From NCBI GenBank assembly GCA_028874365.1, contig JAPPJZ010000047.1:4306-68305 (forward strand): DNA of 64,000 nucleotides, written 5' to 3'. Positions 20,689 to 62,972 of this stretch are shown here, one piece after another; position 1 is the stretch's first letter, and each line of letters begins with the position of its first letter. The stretch comes from Chloroflexota bacterium (GTDB lineage: Bacteria; Chloroflexota; Dehalococcoidia; Bin125). The notes beneath the pieces are model-generated. The model was not told the DNA's origin. It searched no databases and saw only the letters and a list, made by a program, of their open reading frames with translations. A program made the translations under genes and the position numbers.

Positions 20689-21027
20689 TCAGGGCGATGA
20701 CGGAGTGTCCTGGCCGACCTCTGAGAAGTTGGTGATCGCCACTTCGCCTTCCGGAAACTCGGCGACGACCTTCAATCGACCCCCGACGGCCTCGATGTAA
20801 TGGCGCAAGCTGGACACGTAGACATCGGCCCGCTGTTCCATCTTGGCAACGGCAGGCTGGTTGACTTGCAGCCTTTCGGCCAAGTCCTGCTGGGTGAGTT
20901 CGCGCGCCCGGCGCAACTCGTGCAGACGCATTTCGCGCAGCAGTCGACTCTTCTCTTCGTCGATCCGCTTTCGTCTCTCCGGAGAGAAGTCCTTGGTCAG
21001 TTCGCTGAATGGTCGGTGGCCAGCCAT
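20689..21027 (-). CDS. XRE/HTH antitoxin (HigA-like)
   Basis: LHELRRARELTQQDLAERLQVNQPAVAKME HTH; ATG overlaps the toxin TGA (TGATG). Confidence 0.88.
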   Translation of the reverse strand: MAGHRPFSELTKDFSPERRKRIDEEKSRLLREMRLHELRRARELTQQDLAERLQVNQPAVAKMEQRADVYVSSLRHYIEAVGGRLKVVAEFPEGEVAITNFSEVGQDTPSSP

Positions 21028-21386
21028 CAAATCAGTCCTTCCTGTCGCAGCTCTCTCAGATAGTCGTCATAGAGCTTGTCGGCCAACGGCACAAACTCCT
21101 CGTAGAATCGGTCGTTGCCCGTCTTGTCTCCGCCAATCAGCAGAATCGATGTACGCCTAGGGTCGAACGCATAGAAGATCCGAATCGGGCTGCCGCCGCT
21201 CTGCACTCGCAACTCGCGCATGCCGCCGTGTCGCGAGGACCGAACGCTTGACGAATGCGGATACGGAAGATTCGGCCCCTGCTCCTCAATCAACTCAACC
21301 TTGGCTGTGACGCTCCCCTGTTGACGCTCAGAAAGTTGGAGCCACCAATGCTCGAACTCATCGGTGTACTCCACCTCCCATTCCAT
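21027..21386 (-). CDS. RelE/HigB-superfamily toxin (Gp49/DUF891-like)
   Basis: GPNLPYPH, MRELRVQ, IRIFYAFDPRRTSILLIGGDK; toxin precedes antitoxin. Confidence 0.88.
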   Translation of the reverse strand: MEWEVEYTDEFEHWWLQLSERQQGSVTAKVELIEEQGPNLPYPHSSSVRSSRHGGMRELRVQSGGSPIRIFYAFDPRRTSILLIGGDKTGNDRFYEEFVPLADKLYDDYLRELRQEGLI

Positions 21387-21529: not shown

Positions 21530-24001
21530 CTAGGTCCGCTGGCCGAATTCTCGGCTGGTGTCGACGACGGCGATGGCGGCGATTCCCTCTTCGGACGACA
21601 TGACTTTGACGCCCTTCGAGGAGCGGCCGACCTGGCGGATCTGCTGGATCTCGGTGCGCAGGATCTTGCCTCCGGCGGAGATCACGACCAGCTCTTCGTC
21701 GCCGCGGACGACCGCCATCCCGACGACCGGACCGGTGTCGTCGGACACCTTGTGACCGATCATGCCCTTGCCGCCGCGACCCTTGGTCGAGTACTCAGAC
21801 TCAGACGTGCGCTTGCCGAACCCGCCGGCGGTCACGGTCAGGACCTCGGTATCGGGGTCGATGGTCTGCAATCCGATGAGCGCCCCGCGAACCGGGATGT
21901 TGATGCCTCGGACCCCGCCACTGATGCGTGAAGCCTCACGCAGAGAGTCGATCGCAAACCGGACGGTGCGGCCATCCGAGCCCGTAACGATCACGTCATC
22001 GCCTCTGTGGGCGAAGGTTGCCTCGACCAGTTCGTCGTCGTCGCGCAGGTTGAACGCGATCAAGCCACTGCGTCGGACGTTCAGATAGTGCCGCAGTTCA
22101 GTCTTCTTCACGTAGCCCTGTCGCGTGCCGAGGATGATGTAGTCGTCCTCGAACGATTCGACCGGGATGATCGTGGTCACGTGCTCGTTGAGCTGGAGGT
22201 CCACGACGTTGCGCACCGGCAGCCCTCGCCACTCCCGGGAGCGCGCCTCAACCTCGTGGGCCTGCAGACCGTAGACGCGACCGCGCGAGGTGAACATCAG
22301 CAGGTGGTCGTGGGTATCGCAAGCGATCAGGCGGTGCGGCGCCTCGACCGAGGTCGTACCGTTCTTGCGCTCGATCCCCTTGACGCCCTTGCCGCCTCGC
22401 CGCTGCGAACGGAACGCGTCGACCGGCTGTCGCTTGATGTAGCCGTGACGTGTGAGCGTGACGACCGACGACTGGTGCGGCACCAGGTCAGCCGGACTGA
22501 AGTTGTCGACCGACCGCTCGATCACGCGAGACTTGCGATCCTCGCCGTAGGTCTCGACCAGCTCGTCCATGTCCTCCGCGATCAAGCCGTCGATCAGCTT
22601 CGGGTTGGCGAGCAGACTTTCGAGGTATTCAATCGTTTCGCTCAGGTCGTCATACTCCTCCTGCAGCTTGGCGCGCTCGAGTTGCGCCAGACGCCGAAGT
22701 TGCATTTCCAGGACGGCCTGCGCCTGTCGCTGCGACAGATCGAACGGGTTCTCCTGCAGGCGGTCTCGCGCCGCCTCGGCCGACTCCGCGGCGCGAATCG
22801 CGGCAATGATCGCGTCGATGTCGTCAATCGCCTTGAGCAGGCCCTCGACGATGTGATGGCGTTCCTTCGCCTTCTCGAGTTCGAACTCGGTCCGCTTGGT
22901 AATGATGTTGCGGCGGTGCCGAATGTACTCCCGCAGCAGTTGATACAGCGTGAGTGTCCGCGGCTGGTTATCGACCAGGGCCACGAAGTTGCCGTTGTAC
23001 TGGGTCTGCAGCGCAGTCGACTTGTACAACTGCGCCAGAATCGTCTGGTAGTGGCCGTCGCGAGTCAGCTCCACCACCAGCCGCATCCCGTGACGGTCCG
23101 ACTCGTCGCGCAAGTCTCGGATGCCTTCGATCTTCTTGTCGCGGACCTGTGCGGCAATCTGCTCGATGATGCGCACCTTGTTGGTCTGGTACGGAATCTC
23201 GGTGAACACGATCTGCATGCGGTTGCCGGTCGAGGTCTCTTCGAGATGCTGCTGGGCTCGGACGGTGAATCCACCTCGACCGGTTCCATAGAGTCGGCGC
23301 AGGTCTTCGCGATTCTCGCCGGCGAAGATGTTGGCCGCTGTGGGGAAATCCGGTCCCTTGACGTGCTGAAGGATGTCCTCCAGCGTGGCCTCCTCGTTCT
23401 CCAGGATGGCCTTGACCGCCCCGGCGAGCTCGGCCAGGTTGTGCGGCGGAATGTCGCAGGCCATCGCCACAGCGATGCCGGTGGCCCCATTGAGTAGCAG
23501 ATTGGGGGCGCGGCCGGGCAGTACCGTTGGCTCGTTCAGCGATTCATCAAAGTTGGGTACGAAGTCGACCGTGTTCTTGTCGAGGTCGGCAAGCATCTCC
23601 TCGGCGATACGCGAGAGCCGCGCTTCCGTATAACGCATCGCGGCGGGGGGATCATTATCAATCGAACCAAAGTTACCCTGACCATCAACTAACGGATGAC
23701 GCAAGGAAAAGTCTTGCGCCATACGTACCATTGCGTCATATACGGGTTGATCAGAGTGTGGATGATACTTACCAAGTACTTCACCGACGATCCGTGCAGA
23801 CTTGCGATGCGGTTGATTGGCCCGCATGCCCAGATCGTCCATTGCATAGAGTATGCGGCGCTGTACAGGTTTAAGGCCGTCCCGCGCATCGGGCAACGCT
23901 CGGGATACGATGACGCTCATCGCGTAGTCGAGATAAGACGAACTCATCTCCTCGACGAGGGTACGCGTGGGCTGTTGTGGCGCTGTTTGCTCAGTAACCA
24001 A
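21530..24001 (-). CDS. gyrA: DNA gyrase subunit A
   Basis: [30 protein letters not shown] catalytic Tyr, GyrA-box QRRGGKG in the CTD; TTG start with GGAG. Confidence 0.96.
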
Positions 24002-24035
24002 GCGGGGCTCCGAGGGCTTTGTCTATTGCCTCACT

Positions 24036-24731
24036 CTAGCACAATTCGGCCATATTGTTGGGCTCAATGCGCCGATGTTCGGGGTCGCGCGGGACCACCT
24101 GCCAGCCCGCAGGAATTGGGTTCGGACGCACCTCTGAGTTGTCAATCTCCAGCTCAAATTGTTGTAGGCGCTGCTGGCTGTGCACGTCCAGCCATGTCGG
24201 CGATTCACCGTCACTCAGCAGCGAGTCGAACCACCATGCATAGAGCGTGGCCGGCGCCCGCCAACGGGACGAGATTCTGACCCTCGATGCCAGGTCACGA
24301 CCGCCGACCAGGGCGTAGCGAGAGCCCTCGGTCGACGAGATGATGTCGAGCTGTTCGGCAGTCAGCCACTGGATCCAGGTCAGGCAGACGGCGCCGGGAC
24401 GAGCAGCGAGGCTGACCGGCATGTAGCCCTTGCTGGACCGCACCGGGCAAAACGCGACATCGAAATCGCTGAGCAGCGCCGGGATCAGGGGCACGCCGTG
24501 CAGGTCGGCTTCGGTGCCGGCCAGCTTGTCGGAGAGTTGCCGCGGGTAACCGTTGCTGCCCACCGCGAGCAGCGCAGTTCGCCCCTGCGTGTTCACCGCG
24601 GAGGTCAACGCAAAGGATTTGCCTGCCCGATACAGCAGCGGATACCGGTTCCGGCGATTCCTCGCGTCGGGATAGAGCTGCGGCACGTCGGACAGGCTGG
24701 GCCAGGTGCGAACGTGGACAGGCGTCGTCAT
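24036..24731 (-). CDS. Hypothetical protein, possible gamma-glutamylcyclotransferase-like fold
   Basis: LLAVGSNGYPRQL resembles the GGCT AYGSN loop; start at MTTPVH is my choice. Confidence 0.45.
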   Translation of the reverse strand: MTTPVHVRTWPSLSDVPQLYPDARNRRNRYPLLYRAGKSFALTSAVNTQGRTALLAVGSNGYPRQLSDKLAGTEADLHGVPLIPALLSDFDVAFCPVRSSKGYMPVSLAARPGAVCLTWIQWLTAEQLDIISSTEGSRYALVGGRDLASRVRISSRWRAPATLYAWWFDSLLSDGESPTWLDVHSQQRLQQFELEIDNSEVRPNPIPAGWQVVPRDPEHRRIEPNNMAELC

Positions 24732-60189: not shown

Positions 60190-61554
60190 CTAGTCGCCGC
60201 CCGCGACGGGCGTCGCCCGCCGTTTCTGCTCGCCCATCCGCGCAACCGGCGCAAGTCGCGCGGCAAACGCCGGACTCCGCCCGGATCGAGCCGACCGCTC
60301 AGTCGGCCCCGCTGCCGCGAGTGCGGCCGGCGTGCCGACCTCGAGCGGCATCCGTCGAGTCCGCCGCCAGGCGACAATGAGCAACCCGGTTGCGGCCAGC
60401 ACGATCATCCCCACCAGGAACATCGTTTCGCGCCCGCCGATCGCGTCGGCGCTAATCCCCCAGATCGGACCAAGCAGCGACTGCGCTGCAAACCCGAGCA
60501 CAACGAACGACATCACCCGCCCGAAGAACTCCGGTCGAGAGTTCGTCATGATCAGAGCCTGGTTGACCAGCAACACGCCCGTCGACGCGATGCCGACCAG
60601 GATCGCCAGCAGCATCATCGCGAAAAACGAAGGCGCCAGCCCGGCGAAGAAGAACACCAGCGCCAGCAGCCCCCCAAACGCGATCAGCAGCGGCCACGCG
60701 CGAGGTCCCGAGACCATCCCGGCCAACGGCACATTGGCAATCAGCGAGACCACGCCCACGATCAGGTAGAGCAGAAAAATGTCGCTCGCCGGCACACCGA
60801 AGTTGCGCTCGATGTAACCGGGCAGCAGCACCTGAGCCGCGAACCGGCAGATCGACACCACCATCCAGAAGCTCCACAGAATGCGCAGCCGAGGACTGCC
60901 CATCAGATACCTGAAGCCGGATGTCAGTTCGCCGACCACCGATCGTCGTGCTGCGGCGTCGCTCGCCCGAGCGTTCGGCAGCCACGTCGTGAGCGGCAGC
61001 GCCACCAGGAAGAATCCCGCCACCAGGAAGTACACCTGGCCCGACCCGAATGCAAAGACCAGCAACAGCACCGATCCCAACATCGGACCAATCACCAGCG
61101 CCAGGTTCTGAGCCACCTGCAGCAGCCCGACTCCGCCGCCCATCAACGATCGCGGGACCAACTCGCTCATCCACGCTTGCCGAGCCGGACCCATCAACGC
61201 GAAGCCAACGCCCATCAACAGGCTCGAAACAAACAGCATCCAGATCGTGATCAGCCCGCTCACCACCAGGATCCCGGTACCCAGGATCAACAAACCAGGG
61301 ATGATTTGGCCAACCAGAACGAGCGGCTTCTTCGCATACCGATCCGCGATCACACCGCCGATCGGTCCCAGCAGCAACATCGAGAGACCGCTGCCCATCT
61401 GCGCGATGCCGGACGCCGTATAGGACTCCGTGATCTCATACGCCACGATCGGCACCAGCAGGAAGCTGGTCATGAACGCCGTGGTGGAGAACAGCGTCCC
61501 GCCCCAGAGCAATCGGTAGTTCCGCGACCCGAACGCGGCGAACGTCCCCCGCAT
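60190..61554 (-). CDS. MFS transporter, tandem paralog 3, 454 aa
   Basis: Start reset to MRGTFAAFG (ATG overlaps the upstream TGA); GGVIADRYAKK, NSRPEFFGRV. Confidence 0.9.
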   Translation of the reverse strand: MRGTFAAFGSRNYRLLWGGTLFSTTAFMTSFLLVPIVAYEITESYTASGIAQMGSGLSMLLLGPIGGVIADRYAKKPLVLVGQIIPGLLILGTGILVVSGLITIWMLFVSSLLMGVGFALMGPARQAWMSELVPRSLMGGGVGLLQVAQNLALVIGPMLGSVLLLVFAFGSGQVYFLVAGFFLVALPLTTWLPNARASDAAARRSVVGELTSGFRYLMGSPRLRILWSFWMVVSICRFAAQVLLPGYIERNFGVPASDIFLLYLIVGVVSLIANVPLAGMVSGPRAWPLLIAFGGLLALVFFFAGLAPSFFAMMLLAILVGIASTGVLLVNQALIMTNSRPEFFGRVMSFVVLGFAAQSLLGPIWGISADAIGGRETMFLVGMIVLAATGLLIVAWRRTRRMPLEVGTPAALAAAGPTERSARSGRSPAFAARLAPVARMGEQKRRATPVAGGD

Positions 61555-62972
61555 CAGTCGCCGCCGGCCGCGAATCGCCCCAGTTCCCCATCCCCCGCCG
61601 ACGGCTTCTGCGCCCCCATCAACACGACCGGCGCCACCTGCGCCGCGAACGCAGGAACCGGCTGACGCGTCACTCGCGGACTCGACGCCCGCGCCCGTTC
61701 CGGCTCCTGATCGGCCGCAGCCGTGCCAACCTCGAGCGGCAGATGCCGCGTCCGCAGCCAACCCACGGTCGTAAACACCGTCGCCACCAGCGCCACCACC
61801 CCGACCGCGATCAGCGCCTCGCGACCGCCCAGCCACTCCGCCAGCCCGCCCCACACAGGCGCCATCACCGACTGCATCCCGTAGCCCAGCATGATGAACG
61901 ACATCACCCGGCCGAAATACTCGGCCCGCGAGTTTGTCATCATCAGCGACATGTTGATCAACATCACCCCCGACGTCGCCGCGCCCACCGGCAGAGCCAG
62001 CAGGATCAACGTCTCGAACGTCGGCGCGATCGCAAACGCCCACAACGTCACCGAAGACGCCAGCCCGAAGATCAGCAGCAGCGGCCAGGCAAACCGACCG
62101 CTCATCAACCCCGCCAGCGGAATGCTGATCAGTACCGAGGAAATGCCGAACGGCAGGAAGACGATGAACGCCTCCTGAGCCGACCGCCCAAACTCCCGAT
62201 CCATGATCCCCGGCGTCAGCGCGTTCACCGAGAACCCGCAAACGACAATCACCATCCAGTACAGCCACAGCAGACGCAGCCGTCGGTTCGATCGCAGGTA
62301 CGCAAACCCGTGGATCAGATCCCCGAACGCCGAGCGCCGCGGCTGATCGCCCTCCTGCCCCGGCGGCCGCGTTCGCGGCAGCATCGTCGTCAGCGGAACG
62401 ACGATCAGGAAGAACCCCGCCACCGACAGGTACAGCGCCCCCGACGACACCCCGAAGAACACCGCGATCGAACCCAGCATCGGCCCCAACACCCGCGCGA
62501 TGTTCTGCGACATCTGCTGCAGCGCCACCCCGTTGCCCAGCAGCCGGCGCGGGATCAACTCACCCAACCACGCCTGACGCGCCGGACCCATCAACGCAAA
62601 CCCGAAGCCCATCAGCAACGTCGCCAGGAACAAGAGCGGGATCGTGATCACGCCCGTCACGATCATGATCCCCGTAGCCACGATCAGCAGCGCCGGGAAT
62701 ATCTGACCCGCCAGCACCAGCGGCTTCTTCGGATACCGATCCGCGATCACCCCGCCCAGCGGGCCCAGGAAGAACATCGACAGGCCGCTGCCCATCTGCG
62801 CCAGCGTCGACAGCGCGTACGAGCCCGTGATCTCATACCCGACGATCGGCACCAGCAGGAACGTCGTCATGAACGCCGTCGTCGAGAGCAGCGAGCCGCC
62901 CCACAGCAGCCGGTAGTTGCGGTGTCCGAAGGACTCGAAGGCGCCGCCGAAGCGGCCCGACGTTCGGTTCAT
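61554..62972 (-). CDS. MFS transporter, tandem paralog 2
   Basis: GGVIADRYPKK, GPARQAW, NSRAEYFGRV. Confidence 0.9.
   Translation of the reverse strand: MNRTSGRFGGAFESFGHRNYRLLWGGSLLSTTAFMTTFLLVPIVGYEITGSYALSTLAQMGSGLSMFFLGPLGGVIADRYPKKPLVLAGQIFPALLIVATGIMIVTGVITIPLLFLATLLMGFGFALMGPARQAWLGELIPRRLLGNGVALQQMSQNIARVLGPMLGSIAVFFGVSSGALYLSVAGFFLIVVPLTTMLPRTRPPGQEGDQPRRSAFGDLIHGFAYLRSNRRLRLLWLYWMVIVVCGFSVNALTPGIMDREFGRSAQEAFIVFLPFGISSVLISIPLAGLMSGRFAWPLLLIFGLASSVTLWAFAIAPTFETLILLALPVGAATSGVMLINMSLMMTNSRAEYFGRVMSFIMLGYGMQSVMAPVWGGLAEWLGGREALIAVGVVALVATVFTTVGWLRTRHLPLEVGTAAADQEPERARASSPRVTRQPVPAFAAQVAPVVLMGAQKPSAGDGELGRFAAGGD

Follow-up and report, generated by a model that had tools for sequence, protein, structure and literature searches.

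Amelioration of horizontally acquired DNA was reportedly described by Lawrence and Ochman in 1997. Mosaic target genes, which are produced by interspecies homologous recombination, include penA and pbp genes as well as the gyrA/parC QRDR in streptococci, Neisseria and Campylobacter. There is further literature on such mosaic genes (PMC7650674, PMC7344827). Conserved, position-specific clusters of synonymous rare codons have been described by Chaney et al. (2017, PMC5438181), and variation of GC3 linked to recombination, or GC-biased gene conversion in bacteria, by Lassalle et al. (2015, PMC4450053).

The locus that we compare with these systems is a 225-bp patch of A/T-ending codons inside gyrA, found in a 64,000-nucleotide stretch of Chloroflexota DNA to which we refer as the window. 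The patch is a heritable, clade-specific silent-site anomaly and is neither an assembly error nor a recent foreign insert. Like the conserved rare-codon clusters, it consists of contiguous tens of non-preferred codons, away from the 5' end of the gene and at homologous positions in related species, even though preferred codons were available for the same amino acids. Unlike those clusters, its conservation ends at a genus-level clade, and neither outgroups whose protein sequence is the same nor GC-rich gyrA genes in general show it. It is also longer (about 75 codons) and deeper (GC3 0.40 against 0.83) than is usual for rare-codon clusters. With the mosaic target genes it shares the form of a short block whose composition, and perhaps genealogy, departs from that of the rest of a conserved drug-target gene in which intragenic recombination is proven. 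It differs from them in encoding the same protein as the G/C-rich alleles, with no resistance-type change, in having no known donor lineage, and in showing a composition shift without import-like decay. As in recombination-linked GC3 variation, intragenomic GC3 varies independently of the protein sequence and is tied to recombination history, but that variation has been described for genes or regions, whereas the patch is a short segment inside one recombining gene.

The gyrA gene and its A/T-ending patch

The gene for DNA gyrase subunit A was identified from the ORF list, its translation and Pfam. It lies at 21530..24001 on the minus strand and encodes 823 aa from a TTG start. The protein contains a DNA_topoisoIV domain (PF00521, residues 34-478, E = 4.9e-155) and five stretches of DNA_gyraseA_C beta-pinwheel repeats (PF03989) at the C-terminus, so that both the breakage-reunion domain and the C-terminal repeats expected of a GyrA are present. 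The catalytic-tyrosine motif AAMRY(124)TEARL and a recognition helix of the HPHxD type were found in an alignment with about 160 homologues.

The patch extends over 23651..23875 (minus strand), which corresponds to gyrA codons 43-117. The original prediction had counted 44 A/T-ending codons among these 75, and this count is exact, giving a GC3 of 0.41. For the same amino acids, the codon usage of the window itself leads to an expected GC3 of 0.83 (sd 0.042, z = -10), and none of 20,000 simulated codon draws was as low as the observed value. Amino-acid composition is thus ruled out as the cause of the dip. The deepest part, codons 58-117 (23651-23830) with a GC3 of 0.40, has the lowest value among the 15,687 sliding 60-codon windows in the 48 called genes (mean 0.83, sd 0.08). 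The next-lowest windows belong to the non-coding N-terminal extension of an MFS ORF, and the patch is the deepest coding GC3 dip in the 64 kb. No comparable dip is found in the genes for ATP synthase alpha and beta, MreB and MurA in the window. These results bear out the earlier claim that the rest of gyrA and the neighbouring genes are G/C-ending, and they show that codons seldom used in this genome are locally in significant excess.

It had also been claimed that the patch is centred on the QRDR and that the protein stays conserved and in frame across it. Both hold. The quinolone-binding helix motif of the family (23735..23764, minus strand; codons 80-89, equivalent to E. coli 78-87) lies within the patch, and the protein is in frame and almost invariant among relatives. 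Compared with the E. coli sequence HPHGDSAVYD, the motif carries G81S, S83Q and A84P, and it is itself coded with A/T-ending codons (CAT CCA CAC TCT GAT CAA). The motif is confined to this family and is present in 35 of the 120 nearest protein clusters.

One trivial explanation would be an assembly chimera joining reads from two organisms at a conserved region, as the original prediction had itself cautioned. The source is a metagenome-assembled genome, and k-mers of other organisms accumulate at 23551-23590 and 23907-23939. The probability of a chimera is nevertheless negligible. Run X1 has a 6,030-bp unitig over 23561-24200 and a 2,033-bp unitig over 23300-23589, and run X2, from a different study, covers 23567-23942, in each case with 0 mismatches. 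Unitigs from independent sponge metagenomes thus cross both borders and rule the chimera out. In addition, an 844-bp contig of the X5 sister strain spans 23300-23969, the metatranscriptome X6 also covers the patch, and the same dip is found in relatives assembled as complete chromosomes.

The dip is common to 15 genomes of a genus-level clade of sponge-associated Dehalococcoidia, which come from independent studies and include complete long-read chromosomes. This refutes the idea of a replacement private to one genome. The GC3 of the patch is graded from 0.40 to 0.78 among these genomes, with the window genome at the extreme end of the trend, and in L165, L004, L172, L006 and L168 the patch has moved back towards G/C. 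The borders and depth of the dip vary between lineages, and in some relatives it covers both sides of Tyr124. Outgroups that carry the same helix motif have no dip. In about 150 other gyrA genes, subtracting the GC3 outside the patch from that inside it gives values from -0.15 to +0.30, centred on 0, and in 31 unrelated GC-rich gyrA genes the ratio of observed to expected A/T-ending codons across the patch is 0.93-1.0. These comparisons rule out that the dip is a general property of gyrA or of GC-rich gyrA. The original prediction had named the same dip in related gyrA genes as a finding that would speak against it. Such a shared dip is largely what we see within the clade, but it is absent in the outgroups. 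Equally, rare codons are held at homologous positions beyond neutral turnover within the clade and not outside it. G/C-rich and A/T-rich alleles of the same protein coexist in nature, as L165 or L004 show when set against the window genome. The gyrA gene and the QRDR serve as phylogenetic and resistance markers, and composition screens for foreign DNA would wrongly flag the patch.

Homologous recombination within gyrA and a possible donor

The segment for the C-terminal domain (21533..22141, minus strand; residues 621-823) occurs in two allelic forms, which are spread incongruently among close relatives. This distribution is direct evidence of intragenic recombination in gyrA. In AU tests the patch, middle and C-terminal segments each reject the maximum-likelihood trees of the others (p = 0.010 down to 1e-9). 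The patch rejects the tree of the middle segment with p = 0.010 and the reverse test gives p = 4e-6, a comparison in which the patch tree can be biased by composition. The middle (p = 0.0046) and C-terminal (p = 1.6e-47) segments reject a monophyletic group of strong-dip genomes; the patch (p = 0.35) and codon positions 1+2 (p = 0.093) do not. A tree of codon positions 1+2 of residues 131-620 places seven of the eight strong-dip genomes together with L169 in one clade (82% support). L003 has a deep dip, yet it lies outside this subclade. All tree-based estimates are approximate because the trees are uncertain and gyrA is mosaic.

Between sister strains the contrast can be sharp. The X5 strain differs from the window by one base across 23651-23869 and by 4-5% in both flanks. 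For the X3 and X9 sister strains, low variation in the patch is partly explained by a divergent block at 22958-23530, and a clear contrast between patch and flanks is seen only in the X5/X7/X10-type strain.

The main rival to the explanation we prefer is an old import, in which about 250 bp in the ancestor of the strong-dip genomes were replaced by the homologous piece of a lower-GC relative within the family that has not been sampled (patch GC3 about 0.3). The allele would then have spread between species of the clade through homologous recombination and be drifting slowly back to the composition of the genome. We consider this doubtful, although several observations fit it. The gene is mosaic in the clade and its segments reject each other's trees; the middle and C-terminal segments reject strong-dip monophyly whereas the patch does not; and L003 has its deep dip outside the backbone subclade. 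The near-identity of the X5 strain in the patch, the lineage-dependent borders and depth of the dip, and a divergence in the patch that is lower in strong-dip genomes than in the rest of gyrA and in the aldo-keto reductase gene all point in the same direction.

The difficulty lies with the donor. Because the patch contains the helix motif, a donor can only have come from this GC-rich family, and all 21 family genes whose DNA was read have a whole-gene GC3 of at least 0.74. A donor was not found in 80 genome loci, 80 metagenome loci, 15 viral contigs and the phage and plasmid records, nor among the best 120 of 8,000 protein matches in a collection of 5.8 billion proteins. Phage and plasmid matches show about 70-73% identity over most of the patch and viral contigs at most 68% protein identity, and we reject a phage, plasmid or viral donor. 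Codon choice shared with low-GC gyrA genes at the same sites gives no signal of common origin (mean site probability 0.58, family average 0.56). Vertical descent accounts for most of the distribution, since codon positions 1+2 unite most strong-dip genomes in a single clade. We also considered an integrative element that had replaced the 5' end of gyrA and dropped the idea, as the order of the genes upstream is conserved in every relative and outgroup. The original prediction of recombination from a lower-GC donor has therefore held in part: the AU tests show intragenic recombination and the patch is less diverged, but a donor was not found and, as described below, normal decay fits poorly.

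Silent-site turnover in the patch

In the eight strong-dip genomes, sharing of A/T-ending states between genomes reaches a Dice value of 0.75 in the patch. Outside the patch the value for gyrA is 0.34, and no other 75-codon window of the gene exceeds 0.45. If the patch had turned over as the gene normally does, an ancestral A/T-ending fraction of at least 0.9, and often above 1, would be required for most deep pairs. A two-state maximum-likelihood model gives the patch a similar overall substitution rate and a lower equilibrium GC3, 0.62-0.67 compared with 0.82 for residues 131-620. An AT-rich root combined with the normal equilibrium of 0.83 is rejected under uniform rates (2dlnL = 11.0-11.5, 1 df), and stationarity is not rejected. 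With two rate classes, the test against normal decay is weaker on the patch tree (2dlnL = 4.3) and the parameters are unstable. Normal decay after an old import would need an ancestral GC3 of about 0-0.3, and amelioration at the host rate is not what we observe (2dlnL about 11 with uniform rates, the two-class test being weaker and unstable). The patch does resemble ameliorating DNA in being a compositionally atypical segment under strong G/C pressure, with some lineages (L165, L004, L168) returning to G/C. Unlike such DNA, its A/T-ending states in the strong-dip genomes outlast those elsewhere in gyrA, and the fitted equilibrium is below that of the rest of the gene.

Among strong-dip genomes, composition-neutral divergence, measured as within-class transversions at 4-fold sites, amounts to 0.158 for the patch. 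The corresponding values are 0.292 for the remainder of gyrA and 0.264 for the adjacent aldo-keto reductase gene. The patch has the lowest value in gyrA. It is about half that of the rest only among the strong-dip genomes, which also fits a younger allele spread by recombination, while the ratio of patch to rest is about 1 for the closest pairs and for near-saturated comparisons involving other groups. In the closest pairs (the window genome with L168, and L005 with L008) silent divergence in the patch is not reduced, contrary to what uniform constraint would predict. Between L001 and L004, G/C transversion divergence is equal in the patch (0.12) and the rest (0.12), and the excess in the patch is wholly directional: 23 sites are A/T in L001 and G/C in L004, and 5 are the opposite. 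This pair therefore needs no deeper coalescence, which counts against an old import. In a reconstruction the GC3 of the patch starts at 0.76 and descends in steps to 0.40 in the window genome, and the trend is reversed in other lineages; a count of singleton polarity is biased by ascertainment. The original prediction had also named a local mutational hot spot; in this respect, the substitution analysis favours a locally different silent-site regime.

Our best explanation, which we hold tentatively and with somewhat less than even confidence, is that the patch is a locally maintained silent-site regime, possibly a slow-codon cluster, that is inherited and shuffled within the clade. In one subclade of the sponge-associated Dehalococcoidia, codons from about 50 to 126, the winged-helix/QRDR segment, would be under a substitution regime of their own, and A/T-ending codons, once present, would persist much longer there than elsewhere in gyrA. 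This state would be passed on vertically and might sometimes be shuffled by homologous recombination within the gene. The regime is visible in the silent sites themselves, and from it we infer a selective agent, the most likely cause being selection on the nucleotide or codon sequence. A candidate agent is a slow cluster of rare codons with lower mRNA structure, at which ribosomes might be slowed as the N-terminal DNA-gate domain emerges. Predicted mRNA folding is weakest at the patch, with about -6.7 kcal/mol per 60 nt compared with -16 to -21 in L165 and L009. A short RNA-level target is an alternative candidate. In favour of a maintained regime, the A/T-ending codons that are chosen (GGT, CGT, GTA, GCA) form a specific set which differs from the general A/T-ending usage of the window, and three blocks with A/T wobble bases among their letters vary little or not at all within the clade. 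Against it, the protein fold is found universally, but outgroups and most GC-rich gyrA genes have no dip, and several clade members have lost the dip without visible harm. Both observations argue against a strong folding requirement.

It would be a further, rather improbable step if the silent sites of the QRDR segment carried a lineage-specific function at the nucleotide level and the allele also swept between sponge symbiont species. Such a function might be a programmed zone of slow translation that helps the gyrase DNA gate to fold co-translationally or to assemble. It might also be an unstructured, AU-rich site at which an RNase or small RNA lands and thereby sets the expression of gyrA. 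Selection would then hold specific A/T-ending codons, and short-tract recombination would spread the allele with zero amino-acid changes. If the patch has its own heritable silent-site regime across species, it would be a clean natural case in which 'synonymous' is not neutral, and local GC3 could not be read as a simple sign of horizontal transfer.

Another possibility is that selection on the patch is not needed. A force that retains G/C, such as GC-biased gene conversion or weak genome-wide selection, might act less on a short conserved segment, for example if recombination tracts rarely bring mismatches there. AT-biased mutation would then enrich A/T, and less foreign diversity would be imported. 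We think such neutral local relaxation quite unlikely. It would explain why the patch, with a similar overall rate, has a lower equilibrium GC3, why composition-neutral divergence within gyrA is lowest there and why the reconstructed GC3 declines gradually, and a link between recombination and GC3 in bacteria has been published (PMC4450053). A single transition also separates most of the A/T-ending codons in the patch from the G/C-ending codon that the family uses most (GGC to GGT, CGC to CGT, CCG to CCA). However, GTA and GCA are used more often than would be expected from transitions. A length of 225 bp is below that of the usual recombination tract, and gyrA clearly recombines around the patch. 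Moreover, equally conserved segments of the window, in ATP synthase and MreB, and outgroups with the same protein sequence are without a dip.

The catalytic-tyrosine block and overlapping elements

In the window genome the downstream edge of the patch is the block ATGCGTTATACGGAAGC around the catalytic Tyr124 (23622..23638, minus strand; codons 122-127), in which the tyrosine codon is TAT (23630-23632). The block is identical in 13 of 13 aligned clade genomes, and it lies at the position where GyrA inteins are inserted in mycobacteria and other bacteria. The coincidence of the edge with Tyr124, together with the dip on both sides of this residue in some relatives, raises the question whether the patch is a silent recoding against a homing endonuclease or the co-conversion scar of a former intein at the catalytic tyrosine. 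Evasion of a homing endonuclease was among the original suggestions, but it finds no support here, and we regard this as the weakest reading and a most improbable one. The 35 protein clusters that bear the motif are all 812-837 aa long, except for one partial record of 531 aa, and contain no intein. Around the insertion point, some 17 bases do not vary within the clade and have not been recoded; the recoding extends over 225 bp upstream of the intein site instead of being concentrated at it. A handful of changes in some 30 bp would suffice for evasion, compared with the 44 over 225 bp seen here, and a co-conversion donor would have to carry the family-specific helix motif.

An overlapping element that requires A/T at the wobble positions of gyrA, either an antisense protein gene or a structured RNA, is very unlikely as well. 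Two plus-strand ORFs run over the patch (23527-23874 and 23696-24280), one of the antisense frames has its second codon position at the wobble base of gyrA, and short nucleotide-invariant blocks exist. Yet stop codons interrupt both antisense frames in L001, L003, L163, L170 and other close relatives, which rules out an antisense overlapping gene. A conserved RNA structure is ruled out by the lack of covariation support, the consensus fold having a covariation term of -0.89 kcal/mol and a compensatory change in 1 of 62 pairs. The patch has no Rfam match at E <= 1, and no internal promoter-like site was found in it.

A second, milder GC3 dip lies at 23234..23320 (minus strand; codons ~228-256, GC3 0.50-0.56) and is also present in several clade members.

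Extent and authenticity of the A/T-ending patch

The minus strand at 21530-24001 encodes GyrA, an 823-residue protein in which Pfam recognises the DNA_topoisoIV domain and the C-terminal GyrA repeats. The original prediction described an A/T-ending patch in this gene, and a codon count bears this out as stated: exactly at codons 43-117 (23651-23875, minus strand), 44 of 75 codons have A or T in third position. The resulting G/C fraction at third positions (GC3) is 0.41, against 0.83 expected for the same amino acids with codons sampled from window usage (sd 0.042, z = -10). Across the 48 called genes, 15,687 sliding 60-codon windows average 0.83 (sd 0.08); codons 58-117 of gyrA have the lowest value, 0.40, and no comparable dip exists in the window's ATP synthase alpha, ATP synthase beta, MreB or MurA genes. 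The next-lowest windows fall in the N-terminal extension of an MFS ORF (60190-62268). Here GC3 is low over the first ~240 codons (61550-62268) and the MFS domain begins at residue 241; the real start is probably further downstream and the extension non-coding. The quinolone-resistance-determining region (QRDR) forms the centre of the patch, with codons 80-89 aligning with E. coli HPHGDSAVYD and the downstream edge of the patch at the catalytic Tyr124. A second, milder dip (0.50-0.56) at gyrA codons ~228-256 (23234-23320) is common to the related loci L003, L005, L007 and L008 and absent from the outgroups.

The source organism is a sponge-associated Dehalococcoidia bacterium. An assembly chimera, named at the outset as a result that would refute the patch, is itself refuted by independent sequencing runs. 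Run X1 gave a 6,030-bp unitig over 23561-24200 and a 2,033-bp unitig over 23300-23589, and run X2, from a separate study, covers 23567-23942, all with 0 mismatches. An 844-bp sister-strain contig from run X5 crosses both patch borders, the metatranscriptome X6 also covers the patch, and relatives with complete chromosome assemblies have the same dip. The patch is a real, heritable and clade-specific silent-site anomaly in the QRDR-coding part of gyrA.

Distribution among relatives and search for a donor

We compared gyrA DNA from 21 family members, taking patch GC3 over codons 58-117. It is 0.40 in the window genome, 0.45 in L003, 0.50 in L001, 0.53 in L002, L005 and L168, 0.62-0.63 in L167, L007 and L008, 0.67-0.68 in L169, L170 and L163, and 0.73-0.78 in L006, L172 and L004; the outgroups L162, L166, L009, L161 and L164 have 0.73-0.88, and L165, placed with L004 in trees, has 0.95. 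Outside the patch, gyrA GC3 is 0.75-0.88 in every family member compared. Across ~150 further gyrA genes spanning all compositions, the difference between patch and rest of the gene runs from -0.15 to +0.30, centred on 0. This distribution makes the dip a clade character that is strongest in the window genome. The original prediction was to be refuted by such a dip in related gyrA genes, and this outcome, largely observed, speaks against a replacement private to this genome. The observed/expected ratio of A/T-ending codons over the patch is 0.93-1.0 in 31 unrelated GC-rich gyrA genes, with a significant excess at four single codons only: I50 (23852-23854), G77 (23771-23773), D117 (23651-23653; GAT in 19 of the 31) and R123 (23633-23635), all minus strand. 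These sequences hint that the region has weak, universal codon preferences at particular sites.

The main rival explanation is that an unsampled relative of lower GC donated the segment long ago and that it then spread inside the clade; we regard this as possible but rather unlikely. The 10-residue quinolone-binding helix in the patch (codons 80-89, 23735-23764) is coded by A/T-ending codons, and among the 120 nearest protein clusters in a 5.8-billion-protein collection its motif is limited to the 35 clusters of this family, which excludes a donor from outside. Whole-gene GC3 is at least 0.74 in every family gyrA whose DNA was compared; only an unsampled low-GC lineage could serve as a donor within the family. 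No close donor came from phage and plasmid records, which match most of the patch at only ~70-73% identity, or from viral contigs, where protein identity is at most 68%. At 4-fold sites the choice of A or T does not track the one made at these positions in low-GC gyrA (0.58 vs 0.56 expected). Evasion of a homing endonuclease had also been proposed and finds no support: with the exception of a 531-aa partial record the motif-bearing clusters are 812-837 aa long, so an intein is absent from all of them.

Descent, exchange and silent-site dynamics

The gyrA genes of this clade are clearly mosaic. The C-terminal domain (residues 621-823, 21533-22141) has two markedly different allelic forms spread incongruently among close relatives, which is strong evidence of intragenic recombination; the related proteins P0001-P0004 share 95% identity with the window protein over residues 131-620 and 76% over 621-823; for P0018 and P0024 the pattern is reversed. 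Patch, middle and C-terminal segments reject one another's ML trees (AU p 0.010 to 1e-9). All codon positions of the middle segment (p = 0.0046) and the C-terminal segment (p = 1.6e-47) reject monophyly of the eight strong-dip genomes, those with a deep patch fall; the patch (p = 0.35) and middle-segment positions 1+2 (p = 0.093) do not reject it. The positions 1+2 tree places seven of the eight, with L169, in a single clade (82% support), with L003 outside. On this backbone patch GC3 declines in steps towards the window genome, from 0.76 down to 0.40, and climbs again in L165, L004, L172, L006, L007, L169 and L168. Vertical descent accounts for most of the dip's distribution, and some transfer of the patch between lineages is likely. 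The X5-type sister strain differs from the window at 1 base over 23651-23869 and by 4-5% in either flank; in the two closest genome pairs patch divergence is not reduced.

Between clade members, silent sites outside the patch are near saturation. The between-lineage correlation of A/T versus G/C state is 0.38 in the patch and 0.18 in the rest of the gene. In the strong-dip genomes an A/T-ending state is common to a second genome in 0.75 of cases in the patch vs 0.34 over residues 131-620, and this measure peaks at 0.45 in any other 75-codon window. In these genomes a composition-neutral clock, which counts G/C and A/T transversions at 4-fold sites, stands at 0.158 for the patch, 0.292 for the rest of gyrA and 0.264 for the adjacent aldo-keto reductase gene. 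With normal gene turnover, most deep pairs of these genomes require an ancestral A/T-ending fraction of at least 0.9, often above 1, to account for their present values. A two-state maximum-likelihood model gives an equilibrium GC3 of 0.62-0.67 in the patch and 0.82 elsewhere; it rejects an AT-rich root plus normal equilibrium (2dlnL = 11.0-11.5) and is compatible with stationary patch composition. With two rate classes, the test on the patch tree drops to 2dlnL = 4.3 and the estimates are unstable. L001 and L004, which are close outside the patch, have the same G/C transversion divergence (0.12) in patch and rest, and their patch excess is all directional (23 sites A/T in L001 and G/C in L004, 5 the reverse), a compositional shift in place rather than a deeper coalescence.

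A distinct local regime acts on these silent sites. Our preferred reading, held tentatively, is that it is maintained and retains specific A/T-ending codons (GGT, CGT, GTA, GCA, TAT, GAT). Predicted mRNA folding is weakest at the patch, and the selective agent would most likely be decoding speed or local mRNA accessibility. A neutral local loss of the force favouring G/C could also lower the equilibrium, but we consider it improbable. Conserved rare-codon clusters (PMC5438181), mosaic target genes and recombination-linked GC3 variation (PMC4450053) are among the closest described phenomena, and the patch is identical to none of them.

Overlapping elements, the binding helix and the downstream region

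An overlapping element is likewise unsupported or refuted. Both overlapping plus-strand ORFs hold stops in close relatives, which rejects an antisense gene. The consensus RNA fold is nearly without covariation (term -0.89 kcal/mol, 1 of 62 pairs compensatory), and the patch has no Rfam match and no promoter-like site. In 13 aligned clade genomes, two of three short blocks are invariant and one is nearly invariant, despite A/T wobble bases: ATGCGTTATACGGAAGC (23622-23638, around the catalytic Tyr), GGTAAGTATCA (23762-23772) and ATGGTACGTATGGC (~23716-23729).

The helix at 23735-23764 is non-canonical, with G81S, S83Q and A84P relative to E. coli. It is limited to this Dehalococcoidia family, the relatives L009, L166 and P0045 having HPHSDVPVYE, and does not co-vary with the codon patch. 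The variant may make the enzyme inherently insensitive to quinolone-like or natural gyrase poisons. Directly downstream of gyrA (20689-21386) lie a Gp49/HigB-like toxin gene and an HTH antitoxin-like gene. At this spot relatives have nothing, a 318-aa unknown protein, an HSDR_N protein or an amidohydrolase, which marks it as a variable insertion point.
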